From assembly GCA_038141355.1 (NCBI GenBank), contig JAYQHX010000002.1:1214478-1278477 (forward strand): a DNA stretch of 64,000 nt, in the 5' to 3' direction. Shown piece by piece: positions 5,532 through 49,799 of this stretch. Made by a program: the position numbers and the translations under genes. The stretch's first letter is position 1; each line of letters opens with the position of its first letter. Under the pieces are notes generated by a model. That model had not been told where the DNA came from. It made no database searches and worked only from the letters and a program-made list of their open reading frames with translations. This stretch comes from Methanobacteriota archaeon. GTDB taxonomy: Archaea; Thermoplasmatota; Poseidoniia; Poseidoniales; Poseidoniaceae.

Positions 5532-6393
5532 TCAATGTTGGCCTTTCGCGGCCGCTACAGTATTCGCCATTAGCATCGCAACTGTCATGGGTCCAACTCC
5601 TCCCGGAACCGGTGATATCAAAGAAGCAACTTCGAACACTTCAGGGTCAACATCACCTGCAAGTCGCCAGCCTATTTCTCTAGAATCATCATCAACACGG
5701 TTTATTCCAACATCTATTACAACCGCACCGGGTTTTATCCAATCCGCCTTAACCATCTCGGGAGAGCCTACTGCTGCGACAACGATATCGGCTTCTTTGC
5801 AGATTGATTTTGCATCCGTTGTTCTTGAATGAACAACAGTCACCGTTGCATCGGACCCTTTGGCAGATAGTAGCAGAGCCTGTGGCATTCCAACATTGAA
5901 AGAACGACCTATCACAACAGCCTTTTTCCAGATAATTCGACTTTGGCCCACGATAACATCTCCATAACGCCAGCAGGGGTACAAGGGACCATTCCATTTT
6001 TCTGCCTTGAACAATCCTACCAAGATTACTTGGATGAAACCCATCAACATCTTTCATTGGGTCAATCAAATCGGTCAATGCTTCCTCATCGAGATGGGAG
6101 GGGAGTGGCGATTGAATTAGTATACCATTGATTGATGAATCATTATTCATTTCAATTATTTTTGACTCTAATTCTGATTGGTCGGTGCTTGATGGCAACT
6201 CTACGTGGGTAGACTTTATTCCAAGCCTTTCACATGATTTGATTTTATTACGGACATAGACATGGGATGCAGGGTCATCACCGACGATTATTACCGCTAA
6301 ATGTGGATTGATATCCATTTTGGAGATCTCATCCTTCAAACGCTGTTCAAGGTCTGCTGCACAGGCCTTTCCATCAAGAATCGTCGCTGGCAT
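5532..6393 (-). CDS. folD: Bifunctional methylenetetrahydrofolate dehydrogenase/cyclohydrolase (two -1 indels; ~287 aa joined)
   Basis: [22 protein letters not shown], then PCTPAGV in a second frame, then [12 protein letters not shown] and [10 protein letters not shown] in a third. Each junction is an A5 run that needs A6 (~5997-6001 and ~5933-5937). Confidence 0.93.
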
Positions 6394-13216: not shown

Positions 13217-14655
13217 ATGCGAAGAACTCGAGTAATTGCAACCATTGGGCCTTCATCTTGGGATTTGCAAAGCCTATCTAATTTATTCAATGCTGGAACC
13301 GATGTTTTCCGATTGAATTATTCTCATGGAGAACCCGAGGATAAGACTGAATTATACGAAAGAATAAGGTCATTAGAAACCGATTCGAAACGTACGTGTA
13401 TTCTCGCAGATCTTCCCGGCCCCAAACTTCGATTAGGAGAATTTGAAGGAGTTAGAATCTTAGAAGAGGGCGCCTCAATTAACCTACTATGTGGCAAGTT
13501 GTCACACACAGGAGACGAATTACCAGTCGAATATGGAGGCCTATCCGCTGAACTAAAGACCGGAGATTCCATTCTAATTGCAGATGGTTTAATTCGATTA
13601 CTTGTAAAGAATACACCAGGGAAGACAAACTCAGTTATCGAATGTGTAGTCGAAGACGGGGGTCCGGTCAGCAGTAGAAAAGGAATCAATGTTCCTTCCA
13701 CAAATATCAATTTACCAGCGATAGGAGAAAAGACGAGAAAGCATTAGCTCATGCTTTGGATAATGGTGCAGATTGGGTTGCTGTATCCTATGTTAGGACA
13801 GCAGAGGACCTAAGGCCAGCCAGAGAGGCAATCAAGAAAGCAGGTAAACATACTCCGATTATTGCAAAAATCGAGCACCCTGTTGCCTTATCGAACTTAC
13901 AATCTATTCTTGATGAAGCAGATGCAGTTATGGTTGCAAGAGGAGACCTCGGAGTAGAGATACCACTTGAACAAGTACCATTAGCGCAACAACGGATAAT
14001 AGAATCCGGATTGATGAGAGGAATGGTAGTAATTATTGCCACACAAATGCTTGAAACTATGACGGAAAATCTACGCCCCACCAGAGCAGAAGTAAGCGAT
14101 GTATCAAACGCTATCAGATATGGTGGAACCGCTGTAATGCTTTCGGGTGAAACCGCATCAGGAAAATATCCCTTGAAAGCAGTTGAAACTATGGTAAAAA
14201 TAGTCGATGCTACTGAGCAAGGACTTATTTCATCAGGGGCAAAGCCGGGTGCGCTTTCAAAATTCAGATCGACAAGAGCGGTAGCTCACGCAGGAGTTGA
14301 ACTTGCACGATTATCAGGTGCAAACCACATTTTAGTCGCTTCTAAACATGGAAATGCACCGAGATTTGTATCTGGATATAGGCCAGATATTCCTGTAATC
14401 GCTGTCACAGACAGAATTCGAACTGCAAGAAGAATAAATCTACTACCCGGAGTAAGTTCCGTTTTCGTAGAAGAAAATGAAAGAGGTTCAAAGACAATGC
14501 AAAACGCAATACAAATTCTTGCCGAAAAAGGTGACATAAAGCCTGGTCAAAGGATTGTTGCGATTTCTGGCTCACCTCAGGCAATAAGCGGAGCCACTAG
14601 TACCGTCAGATTGTATAAATTGCAATCAGATGGAACGATTTCGGGCACAGAGTAA
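13217..14655 (+). CDS. pyk: Pyruvate kinase (one -1 indel at ~13727-13730; ~479 aa joined)
   Basis: RTRVIATIGPSS, RLNYSHG, DLPGPKLR, SRKGINVP in the first frame; IIAKIE, MVARGDLGVE, ATQMLE, PTRAEVSD, MLSGETA in the second. Junction GAAAAGAC needs one more A. Confidence 0.95.
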
Positions 14656-34819: not shown

Positions 34820-36478
34820 TCATTCTTCTTCAGCGATGTGTATAGATGCCAAGAACTGATCAATGTCGATATATCCGTTCGCTTCTTTGTCAACATGGTG
34901 GAAAATATCCCTATATTCATCATTTGTAAAGGTGAAATGTAGTGCTTTTAGAGCAGCAATAAATTCTCTTAATGTTAGGTGATTCTTTCCGCCTAGGTCA
35001 GCGGCGTGGAATGCTGCTTCTCGAATCGTTCTCTGCGTTGGGTCTGATTCAGACAACATTTTCATGAATGTATCAAAAGGAGTTGTTCGAATGTGACTGT
35101 GTTTTACACCATATGAATAATAAGTCACCGCACCAATAATGAACGCAGCAAATGCGCCCAAAATAGCCTTTTGTCCCATCAAATACACAAGATATGTACC
35201 ACTTATTACTCCAAAGATTTGCAACCACGGATAAAGTGGTGATTTATACTTAGGGTGGTACCAGCCATGAGCAAAATTTGCTCTTCTAAGTACTATCACA
35301 CTAATGTTGATTAGAACGAAAACCATAATCTGGAAACCTGAAGCCAGTTTTGCTACATCTTTAACTGGAAGGAGGATAATACATGCAGCCATTGTTAGTG
35401 AAGTGATAATAATGGCCCAATGTGGAGTTTCAAATCTCGCATTAACATCTTCCAATGCTTGAGGTAAGAGATTATCTCTTGACATAGCAAACAAGAATCT
35501 AGAAGAGGCAAGAACTCCTGCTAATGCTCCAGAAATCATTGTCAAAATCGCCAAGATAGCCATGAAAATTCCAATCTTTGTTCCTGCTACGGCATCAACA
35601 AATGCAAAGACAGAATCTTCTCGAGGCTCTCCACCATCGTTTAGCCACCATTCACCCGGAACAGAGGCCATCATTACAAATGTCACAAAACAATACAGTA
35701 ATATTGCCACAGAAAGAGAAATTATAATTCCAGATGGAAGGTTCTTTTCAGGATCCTTAACCTCTCCACCAATTGCTCCTACCTTAATGATACCAGAATA
35801 TGCAATAATGACAAGTGCTGCTGCTTCTCCAAGTAGTAATGGGTCATTCTTCACAACATCGATGGCTCCATTATAAGGAACTGAAAAATCCGTACTTGAA
35901 TCAAACAATTGAACTATACAGATTAAAATCAAGACCGCTACTGTGACAATCAGAATTGGTGATTGTACTTTCTTAATTTTCTTAATTCCATAGATGTTAA
36001 GAATCGTGATAACAAGAAGAGCAACCATCGAAACTAGTAATGTGTCAACAGTGGTATCAAAATAAGTCGTTACCGCGTATAGATAAGCAGTAAATCCAAT
36101 CAACGCAAACGCTGATTTTAATAAAAATGAAGCCCATAAACCCAGACCACTAATCGTACCAATAAGTGGTCCAAAAGTTCTCTCTAAGTAAACATAGGAA
36201 CCACCGCTAGACGGCATTGCAGAACCTAATTCCGACTTTGAAATGGCACCTGGTATAACCACAATTCCTGCCAGCAAAAAAGCCATCCAAATACCGGGCC
36301 CCATTATATCAGCCGTGAATGATGGAAGAACAAATAATCCAGAGCCAATCATTGCTGCAAGTGAAATGATAACTAAACCAGCAAGGTTCAGAGACCGCTC
36401 AATCTTAACCTTCACGTCTTTAACAACAGATTTGATTTCGCCCTTAGCGAGTTGGGATGCAGTTTTTCTCAAATCCAT
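34820..36478 (-). CDS. APC-family amino acid permease fused to a C-terminal EF-hand pair
   Basis: AAMIGSGLFVLP, AELG-like SELGSAMPSSGGSYVY, GEVKDPEKNLP, ~12 TM; C-terminal DLGGKNHLTLRE and DKEANGYIDIDQ loops. Confidence 0.88.
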   Translation of the reverse strand: MDLRKTASQLAKGEIKSVVKDVKVKIERSLNLAGLVIISLAAMIGSGLFVLPSFTADIMGPGIWMAFLLAGIVVIPGAISKSELGSAMPSSGGSYVYLERTFGPLIGTISGLGLWASFLLKSAFALIGFTAYLYAVTTYFDTTVDTLLVSMVALLVITILNIYGIKKIKKVQSPILIVTVAVLILICIVQLFDSSTDFSVPYNGAIDVVKNDPLLLGEAAALVIIAYSGIIKVGAIGGEVKDPEKNLPSGIIISLSVAILLYCFVTFVMMASVPGEWWLNDGGEPREDSVFAFVDAVAGTKIGIFMAILAILTMISGALAGVLASSRFLFAMSRDNLLPQALEDVNARFETPHWAIIITSLTMAACIILLPVKDVAKLASGFQIMVFVLINISVIVLRRANFAHGWYHPKYKSPLYPWLQIFGVISGTYLVYLMGQKAILGAFAAFIIGAVTYYSYGVKHSHIRTTPFDTFMKMLSESDPTQRTIREAAFHAADLGGKNHLTLREFIAALKALHFTFTNDEYRDIFHHVDKEANGYIDIDQFLASIHIAEEE

Positions 36479-36576: not shown

Positions 36577-37971
36577 TTATTGTACTCTAGCAATTACCTT
36601 CATCTCAACAGCGATTGGAGTAGGCAATGCACTAATTGCTAATGTCGTGCGAGTGGGTCCTACTTTGCCTAGCGTTTCAGCCCAAACCTCATTGTACCCT
36701 GAGAAATCTCTATCCATATCAACCAAGAAAGATGTCACATCGATGACATTATCGATTGAAGACCCTGCTTCTTCTAATATTCTAGAAATATTTTGGATTA
36801 CGGCATGGGTTTGGGCTTTGATATCATATTCTAGTGGTTTTCCATTAGCATCTTTGATTGGTCCACCTGGTATTGAATTATCACCTGGCTGTCTTGGACC
36901 AACACCTGAAAGATAAATCAAATCACCTTCACGACGAGCATGAGGATAGGCACCCACTGGTTTTGGTGCTTTTTCAGAATTTACTGAATTTTTGGATTCA
37001 ACAGGATCATACAGTTCTGGCCCACTGTTGATACTATTATTTTCTGAGTCGTTATCTGAGTCGAGTACGTCTCTATCTCCTCCGTAGAACTCAACATCAT
37101 CCTCATCATATTCCTTATCTCCTGTTCCATTGGATTCAGGATCTAAAACTACAACAGCGGCTCCTGCACCATGAATTGCCTCGTAAGCTAAAACATCACC
37201 ACTCAAGTCATTTCGATTACTGTTCATTGCTGATAACCACCACATTGGTTTGAATGCGACGACCTTCTTTACTCTAATTTGGTCTTGGATTGTACGGCTT
37301 AATTGACCAACATCCTCGAGCCTTCCTTTTCCTAAGAATTCGAGAATTTTTCTATTCCATTCATCGTCTTTCAAAGAGTGAATTCGATCTTCATGAGGCT
37401 CGATTGGTTCAGTAAACATCCTGTTTGAAAGGGACATAACAGATACAGCAACCGCTTTCTTACCTTGAGATTTGATAACGTCAAGGCAGGATTTTGCGAG
37501 AACCGTGGTCTCTGCTCTATTTGAATAAACATTGCTTGAACAAATAACGGCAGGAATTCGATTGTCTGGATTCAATAATTGCAGAGCAACGACAGAACCG
37601 ACATCTATCGGGAACCCTTCATAGGCAACTGTTCGTGATTGCAAACCGCGAGAAATATTTGCATCATTCCAAGCATGCGCAAACTCACTATCGATGTTTA
37701 GTGAGTAATGGATACTGCCTAAATCGTGGAAATCCGCATCCACTAAAACCCATTTAGGATTAGGATCCGCCTGAATTTGGTGTCCAATGATACTAGGCCA
37801 AAGCGTTGAATAAATCACAATCAAATCAGCATCTGATTCTTCAATTTGCCTCTTTGCTTCATCGTAAGCATCTCTTATTCTCTGCCAACCTTCGTTTTTT
37901 TCAGGGCACAAAACAGGGTGAGGATGAGCCGGAACAATTAGCGATTTTACAATCTCTCCAGTCATAGTCAC
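36577..37971 (-). CDS. amnA: 2-aminophenol 1,6-dioxygenase alpha-subunit-like domain fused to a RidA/YjgF (2-aminomuconate deaminase-like) domain
   Basis: N-domain YSTLW, GFPIDVGS, SSNVY, EDRI..DDEWNR matches my recall of the LigB-like alpha subunit. C-domain PVGAYPHARR, LSGVGP, PTRTT, LPTPIAVEMKVIA is Rid-family. GTG start overlaps the amnB stop. Confidence 0.82.
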   Translation of the reverse strand: MTMTGEIVKSLIVPAHPHPVLCPEKNEGWQRIRDAYDEAKRQIEESDADLIVIYSTLWPSIIGHQIQADPNPKWVLVDADFHDLGSIHYSLNIDSEFAHAWNDANISRGLQSRTVAYEGFPIDVGSVVALQLLNPDNRIPAVICSSNVYSNRAETTVLAKSCLDVIKSQGKKAVAVSVMSLSNRMFTEPIEPHEDRIHSLKDDEWNRKILEFLGKGRLEDVGQLSRTIQDQIRVKKVVAFKPMWWLSAMNSNRNDLSGDVLAYEAIHGAGAAVVVLDPESNGTGDKEYDEDDVEFYGGDRDVLDSDNDSENNSINSGPELYDPVESKNSVNSEKAPKPVGAYPHARREGDLIYLSGVGPRQPGDNSIPGGPIKDANGKPLEYDIKAQTHAVIQNISRILEEAGSSIDNVIDVTSFLVDMDRDFSGYNEVWAETLGKVGPTRTTLAISALPTPIAVEMKVIARVQ

Positions 37972-38861
37972 TCACCCCATTCACTTACAGGCCACTCCAT
38001 AATCGCATTACCTGTTCCAATGATTGTCCCATAGCCATGCAATTTCGCTGGTTGGTTAGGAATTCCTAATGTAGATAACAACCATGTTAGAGCGCCACCA
38101 TCGGTCTCAGCAATCGCTTGTTCACAAAATTCTGGCATCTCGTCGATTATCTGTTGTGATTTCCCATTTCTCATCAATTCAATCATTCGCATATCCCAAA
38201 GATGCATTGCGTGGCTAGTGATATGTTCTTTACTCATGTCTTCAGGAGGGTTTGTTTCTGAAACAAAGTGCCTGTGAGATAAGGAATTGCTAGCTACTAG
38301 TAAGCACTTCTTACCGCTTGCCTCAATCGCCTTCGCGGTCGATTTTCCAAGTTCGAGCATCATTTCTTGCATTACTTCAACCGAATAATAATGCATACCT
38401 CTGTTAGAAGATAATGCAACGATTGGTTTATCCCATTCAGGACGAATCATGTGGCAGGAAACAATTGTCCCATAATCTACTCTGAAATCAGGATTTTCCA
38501 TCATTTTGACAGCCAGACCGTCTGATTTAGCCTGGTCATGAATTGATTTAGCCAATTCAACATCGACTGTCAAGTCATAGTTGTATCTGAAAAGGTTGGG
38601 AAAAATAGGGTCCACGCTTTTGGATTGAAATTTTTCAATACCAAGGAAATGAGTTCCAATGTAGGTTTGCCAATGTGGAGACATTATCACAATAACATCA
38701 TAATCGATGTCTTTAATTGATTCTCGCAATCTTTCATAGCCCCATCTCAATTGCTCCCAACCACCTTCTGAAGTTGGCTCATTTTGGGTAGGATTCTCTG
38801 CATAAACGAGGTGCGGAGGATGTGGAGCGAGACATGCTGCTACAATGCTACCTTTCGCCAT
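37968..38861 (-). CDS. amnB: 2-aminophenol 1,6-dioxygenase beta (catalytic) subunit
   Basis: APHPPHLVYAENP.QNEP, GGWEQLRWGYER, SPHW, SVDPIFPNLFRY, FRVDYGT, SLSH, AE, YGTIIGTGNAIMEW are near-identical to my recall of AmnB/CnbCb, with Fe-ligand His/His/Glu retained. Start placed at MAKGSIV. Confidence 0.92.
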   Translation of the reverse strand: MAKGSIVAACLAPHPPHLVYAENPTQNEPTSEGGWEQLRWGYERLRESIKDIDYDVIVIMSPHWQTYIGTHFLGIEKFQSKSVDPIFPNLFRYNYDLTVDVELAKSIHDQAKSDGLAVKMMENPDFRVDYGTIVSCHMIRPEWDKPIVALSSNRGMHYYSVEVMQEMMLELGKSTAKAIEASGKKCLLVASNSLSHRHFVSETNPPEDMSKEHITSHAMHLWDMRMIELMRNGKSQQIIDEMPEFCEQAIAETDGGALTWLLSTLGIPNQPAKLHGYGTIIGTGNAIMEWPVSEWGE

Positions 38862-38916
38862 GAGACTGCGACAAGGTTCCGCACCTTCTATCATTCGCTT
38901 CCTCGTGGCGGTGAAC

Positions 38917-39324
38917 ATGGGGGACAAAACAGACCTCAAATTCCGGCATGTATTGTGGCCAACATTGTTAGCTGTAGTCTTAATTTCAATTTGTGCAGCA
39001 ACATTGGAAATTCACAGATTTCCTCCGATGATATTGTGCCTTGTGGTGGCGGTTCTTTTCGCACCATTATTAGCCAAATTAACCAATGCCGGTGAAATGA
39101 AAGAACACGCTATTGGAGTGGCATTGGTTTGCATACCGATGGCAGTTGTTTGGTCACTTGGTTCAAATTACTTCAATATCGCAATTCCGTTTATGGCTTG
39201 GGTTTGGCAATCAGCTTCTTGGTCCAAATCAAATCAACCTCCGATAAAATACGGGGTTTGGCACGGATTTGGCATAGCGTTTGCGATAATACCTGGCGCT
39301 ATGCTGTACGAGGCCCTATTCTAG
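38917..39324 (+). CDS. Small hypothetical membrane protein (~4 TM)
   Basis: GGTGA SD-like site before ATG 38917; hydrophobic throughout. Confidence 0.6.
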
Positions 39325-40947: not shown

Positions 40948-42324
40948 TCAGTTCTTTACACAAATATTGCTAAACTCGGAAAAAAAGTCTACTGACCATT
41001 GTCCGCCTTCTCTACCTACTCCGGAATTTTTGACTCCTCCAAACGGCGTACGTAAGTCACGATGAAGCCAGGTATTGACCCAAATTACTCCAGATTCGAT
41101 TTGTTTTGCAACGTCAAATCCCCTACTTTTTGACCATACGCTACCGGACAAACCATACTCTGTGCAGTTAGCAATTTCAATCGCTTCACTATCAGTATTG
41201 AAACGGTGAACTGTGACTACAGGTCCAAAAATTTCTTCGGTTGCAGTTCGGGATTCATGGGAAATATTTGTGATAACCGTTGGCTGAATCCATGCTCCAT
41301 CCCTGTCTATGATATTCCCTCCATACAATATTTCACCCCCTTCTTGTTTTGCCAGTTTTATGTATGAATGCACCTTGTCTCTATGCTGTTTATTGATTAC
41401 TGGACCGATTTCAAATTCTTGTAATCCTTCCAAGTATTCCTTCATGAATTGTTCATAAATTGAGTCATGTACTAAAACCCTAGAACCACACAAACATATC
41501 TGTCCTGAATTTAGGAAAGAGGACCTGATTACACCTGGAACAGCGATTTCTAAATCAGCATCATCAAGTACTATGGCTGCATTCTTACCACCTAATTCTA
41601 GGCTTAATTTCTTAAACATTGGAGCTGCAGTTGCTGCGACTATTTTCCCTGTTGCCGTGCCGCCAGTAAAGGATATTGCCTTGATTTTTGGGTGTTCAAC
41701 AATTGCCTGTCCGACTTCTGGTCCGTATCCATGCACAATATTCAAAACGCCTTCTGGGAGACCAATTTGAATAGAAATTTTCGCCAAAAAGAATGCAGTT
41801 AATGGTGTCAACTCACTCGGTTTAGCGATTACAGTGTTTCCCATCAATAGAGCAGGTGCTATTTTCCAAGAAAGAAGGTATAGAGGTAAATTCCAAGGGG
41901 AGATTAGACCGACAATACCAACTGGTTTTCTCACTACCAAATTTGTCGCATCGCTCATGTCAAACCTTTTTTCTTCAATTCCTTTACCAAATTCTGCAAA
42001 AAATCTGAAATTGTAAACTGAGCGATTAGCATCGACATTGAGCGCAACCTCGTGAGGTTTTCCAGTATCAAGACTTTCAAGTCTAGCGATCTCTTCGATT
42101 TCTTCTTCTAAGGCATCGGCGATTTTTTCCAACCAAATACACCTTTCTTCAATACTGAGATTTGACCAGGTGGGTAGAGCTTTTTCCGCTGCCATTACCG
42201 CATCTTCTACTGATTTTGTCCGAGGTATACTTGCAATAATACTATCATCTAAAGGAGAAATGTCGTCGAATGTTTCTTCAGTTCTTACAAAACAACCTCC
42301 GACCAGATTCTGGACTTCAATCAT
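40948..42324 (-). CDS. Aldehyde dehydrogenase, 2-aminomuconate/2-hydroxymuconate semialdehyde dehydrogenase (AmnC/ALDH8-like)
   Basis: PWNLPLYLLSWKIAPAL, FTGGT, SLELGGKN, GQICLCGSR, EEIFGPV, RDLRTPFGG. Confidence 0.88.
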   Translation of the reverse strand: MIEVQNLVGGCFVRTEETFDDISPLDDSIIASIPRTKSVEDAVMAAEKALPTWSNLSIEERCIWLEKIADALEEEIEEIARLESLDTGKPHEVALNVDANRSVYNFRFFAEFGKGIEEKRFDMSDATNLVVRKPVGIVGLISPWNLPLYLLSWKIAPALLMGNTVIAKPSELTPLTAFFLAKISIQIGLPEGVLNIVHGYGPEVGQAIVEHPKIKAISFTGGTATGKIVAATAAPMFKKLSLELGGKNAAIVLDDADLEIAVPGVIRSSFLNSGQICLCGSRVLVHDSIYEQFMKEYLEGLQEFEIGPVINKQHRDKVHSYIKLAKQEGGEILYGGNIIDRDGAWIQPTVITNISHESRTATEEIFGPVVTVHRFNTDSEAIEIANCTEYGLSGSVWSKSRGFDVAKQIESGVIWVNTWLHRDLRTPFGGVKNSGVGREGGQWSVDFFSEFSNICVKN

Positions 42325-43436
42325 AAGTCCACCTCATACAGCCATCTATCCTTGTCTGGGTCCCATTCATCCCATGTTGGTATCGTCTTCAGAACTTCAT
42401 GTAGGTTAGATGGAACAATTCCTGGTACTATGAACGCTTTTTGACGATGGAGAGGGTAAGGATTCCTCAGTTCAATACCTAAGCATCCCAAAATGGCTCT
42501 CGCAAGATACCAAGTGGCCTGAGAATTCCAGCCGTGTGCGATTTTCACCACAATTCCTAGTCCGTTTGGATAATCAGGATGTTCAACGGCTAGACCAAGC
42601 AGTCCATCAGCGCCTTCTTTGGCAATTACTTTCCCATTACCAATTTTCAATATAGTCGAGTCTAATCTATTGAATCCGCCTACTAGATCAGGATGTTTGC
42701 ACATTGCTTCCCAAATCCAGTCTGAATCCTTGTCTCGGACCAGACCAGCATAAATCTTGGCTAATTCAGCCACAGTATTGGATACTGTAGGTAATCCACA
42801 TCCATCTTTTGCGATTCTGAGTGGACTCCAATCTTCTCCCAAAAAGCGCCTAAGTTGTGCAATATAGGCCTTGAATACCTCATGAGTTGGTAGAGTATAA
42901 CCTGCCCTATTCCAACCTTTTGCTCTGCATCCGGCAAGTATTGCTGCGTGTTCACCACTACATGTGTGATACCATCTTCTTGGCCTCCTTACCTGCCTAC
43001 CAAATTGGACTAATGGCACGTCAAGAGGAGTCAACATCAGAGGCCATTCGGCTTCATTTAGCAATGATTGGGCTGCTGCAACGTGCTCTGTATCGCCATT
43101 GTGACTTGCAACAGCGATAGCCTTCTGCTCCCAAGAGCAATGATTCAATTCATCGGTGAATGCTTTCAACATGAATGGCTTCATCATTGAACGACCATAA
43201 CACAAAACATTGCCGCCAAAAGAATGGATTACTTCATCGCCGTGACACCATGCTACTGCGCCGTGAATCGTAGTTTCTGAAACACCATTTCTTCGATAAT
43301 CGACAAGTGGTTCCCATTCAACATCTCTGCCGGTAGGAATTCCTTCGATATCCTCTCCCAAGGGAGAATTTGGGAATACTTCAGAACCAGGTCTTCCCGG
43401 TGCTACCGCTGAATTTCCATCGTGATTTAATCCCAC
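42321..43436 (-). CDS. L-asparaginase II (class 3, Rhizobium-type) family amidohydrolase
   Basis: RSMMKP, ASHNG, TCSGEH, DGCGLP, AKEGADG; stop overlaps the ALDH start. Confidence 0.82.
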   Translation of the reverse strand: MGLNHDGNSAVAPGRPGSEVFPNSPLGEDIEGIPTGRDVEWEPLVDYRRNGVSETTIHGAVAWCHGDEVIHSFGGNVLCYGRSMMKPFMLKAFTDELNHCSWEQKAIAVASHNGDTEHVAAAQSLLNEAEWPLMLTPLDVPLVQFGRQVRRPRRWYHTCSGEHAAILAGCRAKGWNRAGYTLPTHEVFKAYIAQLRRFLGEDWSPLRIAKDGCGLPTVSNTVAELAKIYAGLVRDKDSDWIWEAMCKHPDLVGGFNRLDSTILKIGNGKVIAKEGADGLLGLAVEHPDYPNGLGIVVKIAHGWNSQATWYLARAILGCLGIELRNPYPLHRQKAFIVPGIVPSNLHEVLKTIPTWDEWDPDKDRWLYEVDL

Positions 43437-43438
43437 AT

Positions 43439-44653
43439 TCAGACCTCCAAAAGGGGTACAACTTCATTCCACCAAGCTTCCATGTTGCGAATTACACGTT
43501 CATTGTCATGATTAAAGAAATCAAACCAGCACATTAGCCTATCATCTGGATGGAATCTTTCCCTAACCTGATTTGCGACTTCTTGTGGATTTCCAATAAG
43601 TGCATTATTGGCTGCTTTTTCGACTTTTGTGGGATCGAGTGTACCCTCCAATGCCTTCCAATACTCACCAAGAGCAAGTCTTGCTTCTTCCTTAGCGGCA
43701 GCAGATTGTTCATCTGGTGAGAGGCCATCCTCGGCATTCAAGAAAACGAATGTTGTTCTAGGCATATCTCTCCTCTGCCAATCACCACCATCACTATGGA
43801 ACACCTGTTTCATTCTTTCATGAGTTGAATCAATGATTTCAGGAGAGGTTATTGACAGATTGAAAACCTTCACTGGTAAGAACTGATTTACAAATTCCTG
43901 TGCTCTAGGGTCGTGGGTTCCAGCCACTAATTCTAATCTGTCTCGTGGCCAGTCCTTTGGTACAGTTGAAATTTCTTCAAATTCATATCTTCTTGAGATT
44001 TCTATATGCTCCGAATCTTTACCTGCTGCAGATTGAACAGAAAGCCAATCCTCATCTGTTCTGAAATTGTCTCGCGTCAATACAGTTTCCCTAATATCGT
44101 TAGAATGAATTGTGTCACCTCGAAGTAACTCGAAGGAATATTTCACTTGCTTCCATGAAAATTTGTCCACGTAAAGCAGGCCATGCCGCTTTTTCGATTT
44201 CATTTCTTGGAACTATGCCATATGGCTTTGCCATGAATTCGAATCTACCTGCACTGAATCCGACATGCAATTTTCTATTATCATCAAAAAAGAGAGGTAT
44301 TGAACTGTATTCGCAATCCTCTCTGCAAGAGCCACAGGCCCTCCTCCAGCGAGAATACTTACAACTGCTGAACCTACATCAATATTGGAAGTTCGCCTAA
44401 ATGATTCCAATGCGAGTTGACAAAAATCAGTACAAAGACCTACTTCTCCTTTCCAATGGGGAACCACAGGATTACTGTTCAATTGTTGAGTCACTGTAGA
44501 AAGATGTGATTGTGCAATCCATGCAACTCCGAAACCGAGTCTATCCGCCGCTTCTAATTGAGAAAAATAATTTGAGAACATTTCTGTTTCACTTGGCGTG
44601 AAGCCATTGTGGTCTGGAGTTTGAGAAATCGAGAAGAAAATGTCAAACTCCAT
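43439..44653 (-). CDS. Luciferase-like (LLM) flavin-dependent monooxygenase (compensating -1/+1 indels; ~404 aa)
   Basis: AADRLGF..AWIAQSH, GSAV, P..LAERI, LHVGFSAGRF (alternate frame ~44135-44290), LIGNPQEV. The two ORFs are in the same frame and are bridged by an open alternate frame. Confidence 0.82.
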
Positions 44654-44698: not shown

Positions 44699-45487
44699 CT
44701 ATGATTCGGTAAGTTTTGCAATTCGCTGTTTTACTAAGTCAGGAACGATTTCTCCTTCTTCCATGAATTTAGTCATGATATCTGAAAGTTGAACCATTGC
44801 TTCATCAGGTTGGTCTGAAATTTCCGCTAAGTCCGCAAGACCCCACTTGGCAACTAATATTCCCGATAATTCGTTCAATTGAATTGCCAAATCGAGAGAT
44901 TCTATCAACAGATTTTGGGCATCTTCTAATTCTCCAACTGTTGCGTGTATGTGGGCTAAGTCTGCTAGTGCCTCCATTCTCTCAAAAGATTCCTTTTCTG
45001 GAATAATTTCCAATCTTTTCTTGAGATGCATTTTACTTTCATCAAACTTTTCTTCCTCTTTTGCAATATGAGCTAAAAGTGCATGACCATAGATCATTCC
45101 TTCGAGGTCGTCCACTTCTTCCCTGAGTCTCATTGAACGATTAGCGAAAGACATGGCCTCGTCGGTTCCGAGCGACATTAGTGCAGCATGATGAAAAATA
45201 CCTGCTGCAAGACCTTTCAGTCCTTCACTTTCGCTTGCCATTCCCAAACCGATTATTTCCTCCCTAGGACTATTTTGATGTTTCATTAATTCAAATTGGC
45301 ACCATCCTTGTTCTTCTGCATCGCTTGCTACTTTTACAGCGTGGTCGAGCAACCTCGTGACCAAATAATCACGACCTAGTTCCCGTGCTAACTCACTTAG
45401 ATGTAGTGCCAAACTAGTATTCATTGCTTCCATTCCTTCGCCTTCAGCAAACATTTCTAGCAATTCTTCAGCCTTCTGTTGACTCAT
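44699..45487 (-). CDS. TPR-like helical repeat protein
   Basis: Repeated helical patterns such as ALADLAHIHATVGELEDAQNLLIESL and A..GLADLAE. Start placed at MSQQK. Confidence 0.6.
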   Translation of the reverse strand: MSQQKAEELLEMFAEGEGMEAMNTSLALHLSELARELGRDYLVTRLLDHAVKVASDAEEQGWCQFELMKHQNSPREEIIGLGMASESEGLKGLAAGIFHHAALMSLGTDEAMSFANRSMRLREEVDDLEGMIYGHALLAHIAKEEEKFDESKMHLKKRLEIIPEKESFERMEALADLAHIHATVGELEDAQNLLIESLDLAIQLNELSGILVAKWGLADLAEISDQPDEAMVQLSDIMTKFMEEGEIVPDLVKQRIAKLTES

Positions 45488-45506
45488 TTCTGTCAAAATA
45501 ATCACC

Positions 45507-46292
45507 TTAGATTGAACGTAATCTACCGCCATCAACAGCAAGCGAAACTCCTCGAATTGCTCCAGAAATTGGCATGCAGAGATAAGTGATTGCAGCAGCT
45601 GTTTCAAGTGGATCTATCAATCTACCAATTGGTACTTGGGAAATCCAACCATCGTGGATTTCATCTATACTTTTCCCAGTTCTGGCATTGATGGAATTAG
45701 CTAGTGATTCTAGCCTGTCCGTATCAGTAAATCCAGGTAAGACGTTGTTAATCGTAATACATTTTGGTAATTCACTGGAGAGCGATTTTGCCCAAGAGGC
45801 CATTGCTCCTCGGAGAGTATTAGATAAACCGATATTTGGAATTGGTTCTTTCACCGAAGTTGAAATAATGTTTACGATTCTGCCCATACCAGATTTTTCC
45901 ATCAAGGGTACAACACCTTTGGTTAATTGATGTGAAGCATGTAAATGACGCTTGAAAGGTGTGAGGAAATCTTCAGTGGAATTATCGAGAAGTGGACCGC
46001 CTGGAGGACCTGCTGCATTGTTGATAAGTATGTCACAATTTTCAATTGAAGAAATAAAATTACCAATTGCTTTTTCATCTTCTAAATCGAGGCTTATTTC
46101 ACTGTGTCCCTCTCCTTCAAAAGAGTTTGAAACACCATTTGGATTCCGACTTATTGCAGTCACTTTTGCTCCTGCCTTTGCCAGCATTTGTGCTGTAGCT
46201 TTCCCTATTCCTTTTGATGCTCCACACACAATTGCATGCTTGCCATCTAGTGCATTTATCGCAAATGGAAAGTCGTTTCCTAGCCAGTCCAT
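45507..46292 (-). CDS. SDR family oxidoreductase
   Basis: CGASKGIG, INNAAGP, RIVNIIST, SNTLR in place of YxxxK, NNVLPG, VDGG. Confidence 0.9.
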   Translation of the reverse strand: MDWLGNDFPFAINALDGKHAIVCGASKGIGKATAQMLAKAGAKVTAISRNPNGVSNSFEGEGHSEISLDLEDEKAIGNFISSIENCDILINNAAGPPGGPLLDNSTEDFLTPFKRHLHASHQLTKGVVPLMEKSGMGRIVNIISTSVKEPIPNIGLSNTLRGAMASWAKSLSSELPKCITINNVLPGFTDTDRLESLANSINARTGKSIDEIHDGWISQVPIGRLIDPLETAAAITYLCMPISGAIRGVSLAVDGGRLRSI

Positions 46293-46315
46293 GCATAGCC
46301 TAGATGAGTGATACA

Positions 46316-46323
46316 TTTGAACC
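46316..46323 (-). promoter_or_regulatory. Candidate core promoter element GGTTCAAA preceded by GTGAA
   Basis: 31 nt upstream of the SDR ATG at 46292. Confidence 0.5.
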
Positions 46324-46324
46324 T

Positions 46325-47080
46325 TCACAGCCAATCTTTGATGGCCTCTATCTGCGATAACCAATCATCACTTGCTACATCGATAATCGAATAGTGGTCA
46401 CCTGGCAACCATAATTTTTGGACCGATACTCCTTTCGCATTCATAGCCCGAACATATGATTCGGATTGAGTCCAAGGAACATCTGCGTCAGATTTTCCGT
46501 GGATTACCAAAACCGATGTCTTGGCAGGCATATCAATTGGATTAATACTTCTCCAAATCGATTCGTTTTCCTCAGGTGGGCAACCAATCCATCTTCTGAC
46601 AGCATCACCTTCGTCGGACAATTTAGCATGGTCGGCAGCAACCAGGTCACTTATCGGTGATTGTGCAATTGCAAGCCATGGTTTTCTTTCTGCTACAGCC
46701 GACATTAGCAAGGCTAAGTGGCCACCAGCGGAGTGGCCCATAATCATCGATCGTACAATATCTATTCCAGGAAGTAAAGCAAGTTGCCCCCAAGCTCGCA
46801 TGATATCTGAAAGTGTATCTTGCCAAACACCTTCGTCTCCATCTTCCCATCTCTTGTATTCAACATTCCAGGCTGCAATTCCGTTATCGGCCAATTCTTC
46901 TGCGATTGGAGCCATCAATTCCAAACCGTATTTTTTCTTCCAAAATCCGCCATGAATTAGCATTATACAAGGTATGCCTTCGTCTTTTTGAAAATCAGAT
47001 GGCTCATCTGGCATGTACAAATCTGCAAATTGCCATTCCTCTGCACCCCACTGCATGCGGTCTACTGACAATTTGATCAA
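46325..47080 (-). CDS. Alpha/beta hydrolase (HSL/arylformamidase-like)
   Basis: LIHGGFW oxyanion loop, GHSAGGH nucleophile elbow, HGKSDADVP, GDH. Confidence 0.85.
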   Translation of the reverse strand: MIKLSVDRMQWGAEEWQFADLYMPDEPSDFQKDEGIPCIMLIHGGFWKKKYGLELMAPIAEELADNGIAAWNVEYKRWEDGDEGVWQDTLSDIMRAWGQLALLPGIDIVRSMIMGHSAGGHLALLMSAVAERKPWLAIAQSPISDLVAADHAKLSDEGDAVRRWIGCPPEENESIWRSINPIDMPAKTSVLVIHGKSDADVPWTQSESYVRAMNAKGVSVQKLWLPGDHYSIIDVASDDWLSQIEAIKDWL

Positions 47081-47081
47081 C

Positions 47082-48487
47082 TCAAGGAGTGACTCGGCTT
47101 CTATCTCTCGGGAATAGAACTGTTTCTCTTACATTTCTAGAACCAGTCAGGACCATCAACAATCTAGCCACACCTAATCCCCAACCAGCGTGAGGAGGCG
47201 CTCCATATCGGAAACCATCGGTATAGAAAGTGAACCCTTCAGGGTCAAGACCTTTGTTTCGCAGATTTTGTTCGAGAATATCCACATTATGTTCTCTCTG
47301 GCCACCGCTTGTCATTTCGTCCCTACCATAATTTAGGTCAAAACCTCTGGACAACTGTTCGCCTGTTGTTCCAACCTCGCCTTCAACGTGGTGTATGTAG
47401 AATGGTTTCATCTCCATTGGCCACCTTGGTATGAAATGGAAACCAGGGTATTGCGCAGCAATAATATCACAGTGGGAGGAATCAATATCATCTCCCCAAG
47501 AAATTTCTTCACCTGCATCCTGAATCATTTTGATTGCATCACAGTATGAAATTCTTGGAAAAGGTAAACTTGGCACATCCACGGAAATAGGTTCGTCGCC
47601 TTGAGATTCACGGTATCTATTAATCGCTTCAACCTGTTCTTGGTCGTGTTCTGCTACCATTTTCCAAATGTGGTGAATCATTCTTTCTTGGACTCCCATC
47701 ACGTCTTCATCACTCATCCAAGCACCTTCAATATCGAAAGAAATGAATTCGTTCAAATGTCTGTACGTGTCGTGTTTTTCAGCTCTGAATGCTGGACCTA
47801 TCTCAAAACTCTTTCCATTCCACCAAGAACTGTAAGTTGCTTGTACAGTTGTGGGCTTTGTGATAAAAAGGCAGGAGTGTCAAAATACATCATTGGGAAA
47901 AGATTAGTTCCACCTTCTGATGCTGAAGCAATAATTTTTGGAGAATTGATTTCTTTGAATCCTTCTGTAATCAGATGCTCTCTCCCATATTGCAGTACCC
48001 TTGCTCGCAATGTAAACATTGCATTTACGTGCTCTCTTCTTAGGTCTAGGAACCTATTGTCTAATCTGGTATCCAAACCGATTGACACCGTATCGGTGAC
48101 GCCCAATGGCAATGGAGTATTTGCTTTTGATAATATTTGAACTTCTTTGCTACTACCTCGTATGACGGGGGGTACTGGTTCACCTTCAGGTACCTTAGGA
48201 GGTCTCTTTTCTGCGACTTCTCCTACGACTTGAATGGTTGATTCTCTGGACAGTGTTTGAGCAGTATCCAATTCTTCATCAGATACCATTCCTTCTTTCA
48301 AGAATACCTGAACTTTGCCTGTACCGTCTCTGATATCGATGAAACAAATTTTTCCTTTTCCTCTGTTTGCTTCCATAAATCCACAGATAGTGACATCTCT
48401 GCCGACAAGTTGTCCTCCATTGTTTTGTATTTCACCAAGAGTATGCGTTCTGTAGGCTGTCGGATGCCATGTGATATCATTCGCCAT
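47082..48487 (-). CDS. aspS: Aspartate--tRNA ligase, archaeal type (-1 indel at ~47805; probable hidden +1/-1 pair at ~48147-48172)
   Basis: OB fold FIDIRDG, RLDNRFLDLR, LSQSPQLYKQ, FRAEKHDTYRHLNEF (after frame repair), SGGQREH, GAPPHAGWGLG. Confidence 0.94.
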
Positions 48488-48571
48488 GTTTGAGGGCGGT
48501 AGTATTTACAAAATGAACTCATCGCTGGTGAAAACACAGTCTTGATAGATGATTAATTGTGGCGCTTTATC

Positions 48572-49799
48572 ATGGGACAAGACCTATTCACATCAGAAAG
48601 TGTGGCATCCGGTCATCCCGACAAGTTGTGCGATGCCATCAGTGATGCAATTGTTGATGCTTGTCTGTCCATCGATTCAAACGCTAGAGTTGCAGTTGAA
48701 ACCAGTGTAAAAGGAGGAGAAGAAAAAGGAATCATTCTTCTTGCTGGAGAAGTGACTCTGAATGGTGATCACCCAAATTATGAATCAATAGCAAGAGAAA
48801 CTGCGAATATGATTGGATACAACGACCATTCAATCGGTTTTGATGCGACCACTGCTAATCGATGTGAAGTTATTCAAAAAATCACAGAGCAGGCTGCAAA
48901 CATAAGTCAGGGAGTTAACAATACTGAACAAGGTGCTGGAGACCAAGGGTTGATGTTTGGATACGCATGTAATGAAACTGAATCATATGAAGAATTACGA
49001 GGGCGATATTTCCCTCGCAGCCGCATTATCTCAAAGATTAACAAGAAGAATGACTAATGCAAGAAATGATGGTACTCTTCCTTGGGCAAGACCTGATGCT
49101 AAGAGTCAAGTCACCGTAGAATACGAAAACGGAAAGCCTGTCAGAGTGCATACTGTTGTCATTGCAATTCAGCATGACGCCGCCTTAAAGGATAGGTTTG
49201 ATGGTGATGAGTCAAAGGAGCGAGATTACATTACTTCTGAAATTAGAAAGCACGTTGTTGAGCACGCAATTCCCGCATCCCTCATTCGAGAAGGCTACAG
49301 ATTAGTGGTCAATGGAACTGGCAGATTTGCCGACCCTGGAGGGCCATATGCAGATGCTGGTTTGACAGGTAGGAAAATCATTGTCGACACATATGGTGGA
49401 ATGGGTAGACACGGCGGTGGTGCTTTTTCAGGAAAAGACCCTTCGAAGGTTGACCGGTCTGCTGCATACGCTGCAAGATGGGCTGCTAAACATGTTGTAG
49501 CATCAGGGCTTGCAGATAGATGTGAGATACAATTGGCATACGTAATCGGAGTTGCAGAACCGGTTAGCATTAGGGCTGAATCCTTTGGTACGTCGCAAAT
49601 CACTGATTCTGAATTAACTACTAAAGTCAAAGAGATTTTTGATTTTACACCAAAATCAATCGCTTCTGATTTGGATTTGCTGAGACCGATTTATTCTACA
49701 ACTGCAGCAGGTGGTCATTTTGGGAGAACTCCAAATGTAGACGGGGCATTCCCTTGGGAACAACTTGATGAAAACAAAATTCAACAATTAAATTCATAA
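48572..49799 (+). CDS. metK: S-adenosylmethionine synthetase, bacterial/eukaryotic type (indel at ~49012)
   Basis: [63 protein letters not shown]. Confidence 0.95.

Follow-up and report, generated by a model that had tools for sequence, protein, structure and literature searches.

We analysed a 64,000-nt stretch of DNA (hereafter the window; positions 1,214,478 to 1,278,477 of contig JAYQHX010000002.1, assembly GCA_038141355.1) from a metagenome-assembled genome (MAG) of the family Poseidoniaceae. The host belongs to the Marine Group II (MGII) archaea, and its MAG comprises 2.46 Mb in 54 contigs and is 80% complete. The minus strand of the window carries, at 43439..44653, the gene of a divergent luciferase-like monooxygenase (LLM), a TIM-barrel oxygenase and candidate (N-formyl)kynurenine Baeyer-Villiger monooxygenase. 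Gene content and the predicted fold suggest that this LLM is probably the oxygenase of a kynureninase-independent tryptophan route, acting by a Baeyer-Villiger step on (N-formyl)kynurenine. It is very likely that the LLM and the asparaginase-like protein encoded next to it (AspII) link (N-formyl)kynurenine to the substrate of the 2-aminophenol ring-cleavage (Amn) enzymes. For the wider proposal, the balance tips slightly in favour: MGII archaea, Bdellovibrionota, Myxococcota and Acidobacteriota would degrade tryptophan through the LLM Baeyer-Villiger reaction and the asparaginase homologue to aspartate and 2-aminophenol, replacing kynurenine 3-monooxygenase (KMO), kynureninase, 3-hydroxyanthranilate dioxygenase (3-HAO) and aminocarboxymuconate-semialdehyde decarboxylase (ACMSD).

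The LLM gene heads a compact run of pathway genes. Its stop codon (43439-41) lies 2 nt from the GTG start at 43436 of AspII (42321..43436, minus strand), an Asparaginase_II (class 3, ReAV-type) Ser-Lys amidohydrolase (PF06089, E=1e-48). The AspII gene in turn overlaps by 4 nt (42321-42324) that of an aldehyde dehydrogenase (ALDH; 40948..42324, minus strand), an AmnC-type 2-aminomuconate 6-semialdehyde dehydrogenase (AMSDH). The top PDB matches of AmnC were the AMSDH structures 4npi and 4i1w (E=1e-129), which scored 436 bits compared to 353 bits for the next ALDH class. Downstream on the same strand are AmnB, the catalytic beta subunit of 2-aminophenol 1,6-dioxygenase (37968..38939; 8ihg_A, E=3e-112; 3vsg_B, E=9e-108), and AmnA, the alpha subunit, fused to a RidA-type, AmnD-like 2-aminomuconate deaminase (36577..37971; PDB matches). 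The N-terminal part of the fusion matched 3vsg_A (1e-39), and the top Rid match of its C-terminal part was the 2-aminomuconate deaminase 6izh (6e-26). An earlier note on this DNA, made from the sequence alone, had described the LLM-asparaginase-ALDH run, the 2-nt spacing and the amn context, all of which are correct, with the ALDH being of the AmnC type and AmnB and AmnA-RidA lying downstream. Its statement that the window holds no other oxygenase also stands for the window open reading frames (ORFs) scanned with Pfam, among which no other oxygenase family was found, three large surface-protein ORFs being outside the scan.

The same genes are widespread in the order Poseidoniales. Among 41 sampled genomes, LLM was present in 37, AmnB in 39 and TDO (tryptophan 2,3-dioxygenase) in 40; the TDO gene of the host itself is on the same contig as the window (G000:C2:450720-451715). 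A block consisting of a short-chain dehydrogenase/reductase (SDR), LLM, AspII and AmnC was kept in 7/8 loci from other Poseidoniales genera, and in several genera AmnB lies within 10 kb of the LLM-AspII pair. The rest of the pathway was searched for in five Poseidoniales genomes, the 80% complete host MAG and four others that are 91-98% complete. Nothing above cut-off was obtained for kynureninase or 3-HAO in these five genomes, and neither the ACMSD family nor the KynB-type cyclase was found in them. Judged by their genes, these archaea make N-formylkynurenine with TDO and encode enzymes that cleave the ring of 2-aminophenol, and known enzymes do not account for the gap between the two. We assign the oxygenase and the hydrolase to this gap because only these are consistently available between (N-formyl)kynurenine and 2-aminophenol.

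A scan of GTDB species genomes for LLM returned at least 587 loci, and neighbourhoods were taken from the best 80, all of which are bacterial and belong to Myxococcota, Bdellovibrionota/Oligoflexales and Acidobacteriota. Distant full-length LLM homologues showed 31-47% identity. AspII was beside LLM in 74 of the 80 loci, and the two genes were no more than 300 nt apart in 59. In the 42 loci flanked by at least 5 kb on both sides, AspII was found in 40, TDO or KynB in 19 and AmnB or AmnC in 19. LLM, AspII, AmnC, AmnB and AmnA-RidA occur together in many bacterial operons, one of which (L041) includes two fumarylacetoacetate hydrolase (FAH)-family genes, and a complete operon in the order TDO-LLM-AspII-AmnC-AmnB-AmnA-KynB was found at L102. 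In a Polyangiaceae MAG, LLM is followed by a fusion of AspII to a PF04199 cyclase domain, the family of the bacterial kynurenine formamidase KynB, and then by TDO. AmnB sequences from archaea and bacteria share 51-59% identity. Since LLM is linked to TDO and KynB, its substrate is likely to be kynurenine or N-formylkynurenine; kynurenine was among the compounds that the earlier note had listed for screening.

Further arrangements were seen at individual bacterial loci. The AspII-KynB (PF04199) fusion recurs in many Polyangiaceae/Bdellovibrionota loci of L030-L048 (e.g. L030:11221-12810), with TDO usually convergent just downstream. At L029:2014-14939, TDO, AspII and LLM overlap one another within a biosynthesis-like cluster that has no Amn genes and whose other members are AMP-binding, PALP, DUF1611, MR_MLE, acyl-CoA-DH-like, acetyltransferase and MFS proteins and a second LLM; 2-aminophenol may serve as a building block there. 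In Thermoanaerobaculia, a Peptidase_M15 gene (D-Ala-D-Ala dipeptidase family) is divergent and directly upstream of LLM (L083:9325-10020, L094:9274-10014, L077:9068-9844).

We compared gene presence in 61 genomes, each at least 85% complete, that were drawn evenly from the phylum of one LLM-bearing bacterium. The 26 genomes with LLM all had TDO (26/26), 24 had AmnB and none had kynureninase. AmnB was detected in 0/35 of the genomes lacking LLM, and kynureninase in nine, all nine of which were TDO-positive; none of the 13 TDO-negative genomes in the sample carried LLM. The mutual exclusion of LLM and kynureninase suggests that non-orthologous enzymes have taken over the middle part of the pathway. 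Six sampled genomes (G051, G056, G057, G079, G082 and G098) had a strong TDO match and neither kynureninase nor LLM. Co-occurrence with amnAB had been set beforehand by the earlier note as a test that could refute its proposal, and the distribution of AmnB (24/26 compared to 0/35) is on its side. The role that it gave to LLM, supplying the substrate of AmnAB, is strongly supported by comparative genomics, namely this co-occurrence, the presence of AmnC beside the pair in 7/8 loci, and the operons.

The label of luciferase-like monooxygenase, which the earlier note had also used, holds at the level of the fold and falls short on sequence score. The N-terminal fragment of the window gene matched PF00296 with 21.6 bits (E=1.6e-4), below the Pfam cut-off of 27.9 bits, and the C-terminal fragment gave no match to PF00296. 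The intact homologue P0001 scored 23.7 bits, also under the gathering cut-off, and NCBIfam and Pfam scans of both fragments returned sub-threshold LLM matches only. A precomputed PF00296 match is present in many close homologues of LLM. A single-sequence PDB search with the intact homologue matched nothing relevant, and a family profile built from 20 members matched luciferase alpha chains (LuxA) with E=2e-6. The AlphaFold model (pLDDT 91, pTM 0.90) retrieved LLM structures with Foldseek at probability 1.0 and E values of 1e-14 to 1e-10, with TM scores of 0.64-0.79 against 7bip, 8cbb, 1luc and 2i7g. The structural matches comprised RslO1, luciferases, SsuD, RutA and 3,6-diketocamphane monooxygenase, all at 12-17% identity. 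The predicted fold of the protein is thus that of an LLM, a (beta/alpha)8 TIM barrel of the LuxA/SsuD type. No solved enzyme is close enough for a reaction to be transferred to it. LLM has an insertion of ~15 residues that follows the conserved His in strand 2, and further inserts, which bring it to 403 aa compared to a 314-position model. Separately, the 1501-aa protein P0125 matches LLM residues 1-211 at 45% identity and may represent a fusion or an error in gene calling.

F420 was considered as the cofactor of LLM. It is unlikely because the gene for the F420 ligase (CofE) was not found in any of the five Poseidoniales genomes searched (0/5), and a flavin is the likelier cofactor. Each of these genomes has one PF01613 flavin reductase gene, distant from the cluster. 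In the host genome the sole such gene lies ~89 kb past the end of the window, in line with the earlier remark that no flavin reductase is visible nearby.

An alignment of AspII with ReAV showed that R47, S48, K51, S80, C135, D187, C189 and K263 are kept, while K138 is replaced by E. The Ser48-Lys51 and Ser80-Lys263 tandems and Arg47 are therefore present, and Arg47 in ReAV positions and anchors the alpha-carboxylate of the substrate (PMC12292245). Across loci L030-L109, the RSxxKP motif was found in 74/74 LLM-linked bacterial AspII homologues. These conserved residues appear to fit a substrate of the aspartyl/asparaginyl type. We propose that AspII is a beta-aspartyl aryl ester or anilide hydrolase that would free L-aspartate and 2-aminophenol; such an ester or anilide would suit it because asparaginase-type Ser-Lys hydrolases form an acyl-enzyme with beta-aspartyl derivatives.

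From the gene associations and the predicted fold we infer the substrate of LLM, its Baeyer-Villiger chemistry, its use of FMN and the substrate of the hydrolase, and these combine into the following route. TDO would produce N-formylkynurenine, and deformylation to kynurenine could come before or after the next two steps; the order is left open because of the AspII-KynB fusions, and LLM may use N-formylkynurenine with deformylation last. LLM would take reduced FMN from a separate reductase and form a flavin peroxide, and this peroxide would attack kynurenine at its aryl ketone. The peroxyflavins of LLMs are nucleophilic, and luciferase and the diketocamphane monooxygenases carry out Baeyer-Villiger reactions. 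An electron-rich aryl group migrates in preference to a primary alkyl group in such reactions, and oxygen insertion with aryl migration would here yield L-aspartate 4-(2-aminophenyl) ester. Having a free ortho-amine, this ester may undergo an O-to-N shift to N4-(2-hydroxyphenyl)-asparagine. AspII, a translationally coupled Ser-Lys hydrolase, would then split the beta-aspartyl compound into L-aspartate and 2-aminophenol. AmnBA would open the ring, AmnC would oxidise the semialdehyde, and the RidA domain on AmnA would deaminate 2-aminomuconate. The route would yield aspartate and have no need for kynureninase, KMO, 3-HAO or ACMSD. An aryl ketone is likewise converted to an aryl ester and a phenol before ring cleavage in the 4-hydroxyacetophenone route.

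Several observations weigh against this assignment. The assignment comes from genes and a predicted fold. The closest solved LLMs are just 12-17% identical, a fold of this kind cannot separate Baeyer-Villiger oxygenation from hydroxylation, and the alignment to LuxA is too weak for reliable placing of the FMN phosphate-binding residues. No flavin reductase was clustered with LLM in the archaea or found among the upstream genes of 10 scanned bacterial loci, which encode Peptidase_M15, ferredoxin-like, GuaA, GlmU-like, FadL-like and other proteins. The Fisher p values of the phyletic comparison (5e-15 for LLM with AmnB, 3e-4 for LLM with TDO, and 3e-4 for LLM with kynureninase among TDO-positive genomes) are uncorrected for relatedness and overstate significance, since the counts are not phylogenetically independent. 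The zinc-site motif varies across the 74 linked AspII homologues (CSGEH 26, CSGKH 14, CAGKH 10, none 24). In some Poseidoniales genera amnBA adjoins the LLM block, and in others the two are over 100 kb apart. No formamidase was identified in this order, with KynB absent and the neighbouring alpha/beta hydrolase resembling a carboxylesterase. Weak matches to the generic FAD_binding_3 model (PF01494), in proteins of ~420 aa, occur in every genome, and one of them could be a KMO-type flavoprotein, as far as such a generic model indicates. In the archaea the lower meta-cleavage pathway appears to be only partly present, judged by its FAH-family members, of which each genome has a single gene.

Three other functions for LLM were weighed. 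The earlier note had put forward a chemistry in which LLM adds a hydroxyl group to a free arylamine, or forms 2-aminophenol from anthranilate by oxidative decarboxylation, much as salicylate hydroxylase acts on salicylate. LLM does co-occur with AmnAB and there is no second oxygenase in the cluster, but anthranilate requires kynureninase, which was found in 0/10 LLM-bearing genomes (five archaeal, five bacterial) and 0/26 LLM-positive genomes of the phylum sample. Under that chemistry the tightly coupled AspII partner (74/80 loci) would be left without a role, the link to TDO and KynB points instead to (N-formyl)kynurenine, and LLMs, unlike single-component FAD enzymes, are not known to carry out decarboxylative aromatic hydroxylation. 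We therefore regard it as highly improbable. It is unlikely, though less so, that LLM is a non-homologous kynurenine 3-hydroxylase standing in for KMO, with the Amn dioxygenase opening 3-hydroxykynurenine or 3-hydroxyanthranilate and AspII cleaving a later amide or acyl bond. The linkage to TDO, KynB and Amn would suit such an enzyme as well, hydroxylation is within the reach of LLMs of the LadA type, and 3-hydroxykynurenine is itself an o-aminophenol. However, without kynureninase and ACMSD, 3-hydroxyanthranilate would be neither made nor brought to the AMSDH substrate. AmnB matches bona fide 2-aminophenol dioxygenases at E=1e-112 and is conserved at 51-59% identity between archaea and bacteria, and AspII, with its asparagine-type alpha-carboxylate anchor, would have no obvious substrate.

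The LLM-AspII pair may also act on some other substrate, such as a different aryl ketone or amide or a ring-cleavage product, with only an indirect association with tryptophan genes. This would account for the pair standing alone in 16/42 well-flanked bacterial loci, for the TDO-AspII-LLM trio of the biosynthesis-like L029 cluster, and for two distant LLM homologues (P0134 in L019 and P0126 in L027) that lack AspII, TDO and Amn neighbours. Nevertheless, five genomes with a pair-only locus encode TDO elsewhere in 5/5 cases and AmnB in 4/5, with kynureninase in 0/5. TDO accompanies LLM in 26/26 genomes of the phylum sample, LLM is absent from all 13 genomes without TDO, and many loci have TDO or KynB next to the pair or fused to it. 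An unrelated substrate thus seems improbable, and we retain (N-formyl)kynurenine as the probable one.

The LLM gene of the window is interrupted. In the window ORFs and in a three-frame translation, minus strand 43439-44653 is a single gene-sized reading cut into two ORFs, one of 146 aa (44653..44213) that ends at an in-frame TAG (44213-15) and one of 254 aa (44203..43439) that ends at the stop at 43439-41. The earlier note had implied such a break in speaking of a repaired gene. Three-frame translation and DNA alignment with an intact relative showed that the gene consists of three frame segments separated by two mutually compensating 1-nt indels. The first is a 1-nt deletion in a T6 homopolymer (44286..44291, minus strand), where the intact allele requires T7 (..YLSFFDD..). 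The second (44127..44131, minus strand) is one surplus base (~44129) inside cttcgaGttactt, after which the original frame is regained. P0071, an intact 404-aa allele from another assembly, is 99% identical to both window fragments. Between the indels, 54 codons in the shifted frame reproduce its residues 122-175 without a mismatch, and the two flanking parts match it at 122/123 and 228/229 positions. Relatives in 37/41 Poseidoniales genomes have uninterrupted LLM frames of 403-420 aa.

Two frame-disrupting indels and an in-frame TAG could mark a true pseudogene, with the pathway step lost in this organism. We consider this very unlikely, as the indels cancel, the middle codons are identical to the intact allele and the flanks are 99% identical to it. 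Moreover, four housekeeping genes in the window are likewise split, each into two ORFs in different frames: FolD (5532-6393, minus strand), pyruvate kinase (13217-14655, plus strand), a class II aminoacyl-tRNA synthetase (aaRS) of the Asp/Asn type (47082-48487, minus strand) and MetK (48557-49799, plus strand). The synthetase gene, which is essential and lies 3 kb from LLM, has a T4 run where the conserved ..ERVFEIG.. reading requires T5, a homopolymer error of the same kind as the T6 break in LLM. The pattern of split genes suggests that the assembly contains about one indel error per 10 kb, probably of long-read origin. Because the indels compensate, an intact 99% identical allele exists and housekeeping genes are also split, the LLM break is very likely an assembly artefact, and the 'broken' gene of this window should not be scored as gene loss.

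The predicted chemistry has parallels in known systems. The type II (FMN, two-component) Baeyer-Villiger monooxygenases, 2,5- and 3,6-diketocamphane monooxygenase, and LuxA have the same TIM-barrel fold as the LLM model (4uwm and 5aec, E ~1e-11; LuxA, E ~4e-14). LLM likewise lacks a reductase domain, so a separate reductase is expected, and the proposed attack of a peroxyflavin on a carbonyl would be the same chemistry. LLM differs from them in its 14-16% identity, its insertions, its sub-cut-off Pfam score and its proposed substrate, which would be the aryl ketone of an amino acid where theirs are terpenoid diketones or aldehydes. It shows no special closeness to the diketocamphane monooxygenases, 4uwm being ranked 20th at 14% identity, no nearer than luciferases or SsuD. 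In the 4-hydroxyacetophenone pathway of Pseudomonas fluorescens ACB, the Baeyer-Villiger oxygenase HAPMO is followed by an aryl-ester hydrolase and ring cleavage. The logic of aryl ketone to aryl ester to phenol, with ring cleavage by a dioxygenase, would be shared. HAPMO is a single-component FAD/NADPH enzyme of type I and its partner an ordinary esterase, whereas the route proposed here would pair an LLM oxygenase with a class 3 asparaginase homologue as hydrolase and give aspartate as the acyl product.

Combinations of an LLM and a hydrolase, with SDR and ALDH genes in one cluster as here, are also found in RutA/RutB for pyrimidines and in PyrA/PyrC, the pyridine system of Arthrobacter sp. 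68b. RutA is among the structural matches of the LLM model (6tee, E=2e-10). The hydrolase in those systems is an isochorismatase or an amidohydrolase rather than a class 3 asparaginase, those systems act on other substrates, and their sequences are not closely related to those here. The canonical kynurenine pathway (TDO, KynB, KMO, kynureninase, 3-HAO, ACMSD, AMSDH and a deaminase) shares with the proposed route its start, TDO, and its end, AMSDH and a RidA-type deaminase, and KynB is present in the bacterial operons. Four of its steps would be replaced by LLM, AspII and AmnAB, with aspartate released in place of alanine and no loss of CO2. Homologues of AmnB, AmnA, AmnC and AmnD are shared, with strong scores, with the cnb cluster of Comamonas CNB-1 (PDB 3vsg) and with the 2-aminophenol meta-cleavage clusters amnBACD of Pseudomonas sp. 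AP-3 and Burkholderia xenovorans LB400 (PMC3790839). In those clusters 2-aminophenol comes from nitroaromatic pollutants, and they include no LLM, asparaginase-like gene or TDO; here, in contrast, AmnA and the deaminase form one fusion protein, and the archaea appear to have only part of the lower pathway, which consists of the decarboxylase, hydratase, aldolase and acetaldehyde dehydrogenase (AmnE, F, G, H).

If the proposed route is correct, kynurenine would have a third fate in addition to the branches through anthranilate and 3-hydroxyanthranilate. The route would give functions to two large subfamilies, the divergent LLM clade (at least 587 GTDB loci) and a clade of class 3 'asparaginases', and extend the few known type II Baeyer-Villiger reactions to an amino acid substrate. 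It would also explain why genes for 2-aminophenol dioxygenase, familiar from degraders of nitroaromatics, are found almost throughout an uncultured order of ocean archaea, and provide a natural substrate for the 'xenobiotic' AmnAB ring-cleavage enzymes. Marine Group II is among the most abundant groups of planktonic archaea, and the annotation of tryptophan turnover in marine heterotrophs would change, as these genomes otherwise seem to stop at kynurenine. In the full-text literature searched, which covered few subscription journals, we found no description of a Baeyer-Villiger step on kynurenine, of an LLM and asparaginase pair, or of kynurenine metabolism in MGII.

The genes around the cluster were also examined. 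The SDR upstream of LLM (45507..46364, minus strand; Pfam adh_short_C2 and adh_short) had only generic FabG-like PDB matches. It is directly upstream of LLM in most lineages and was kept beside it in 8/8 Poseidoniales loci and in 9 bacterial loci; in the genus of the window a TPR-like protein (44699..45607, minus strand; 266 aa in relatives) intervenes between the two. The SDR is a candidate for the flavin-reducing partner of LLM or for a reductase of the ring-cleavage product. The alpha/beta hydrolase (46325..47080, minus strand; Pfam BD-FAE and Peptidase_S9) was considered as a eukaryote-type kynurenine formamidase, a role that is not supported, as its top PDB match was a carboxylesterase and no kynurenine formamidase was matched; it was not found beside the cluster in other Poseidoniales genera. 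In this genus LON-N and panB separate amnC from amnB; other lineages lack them at this place, and they were treated as passengers rather than pathway parts.

The AmnA-RidA fusion, with frames of 457-537 aa, was seen in this genus, in the genera with adjacent clusters and in family f2, and an unfused AmnA of ~310-325 aa in most genera in which amnBA is distant from the LLM block. An amino acid permease of the APC family that ends in an EF-hand pair at its C-terminus (34820..36478, minus strand) adjoins amnA-ridA downstream and is a possible importer of the pathway substrate. Homologues of the permease adjoin amnA-ridA in two further genera (L014:1-1425 and L015:16094-17671), and the EF-hand tail is known here from the window gene alone.

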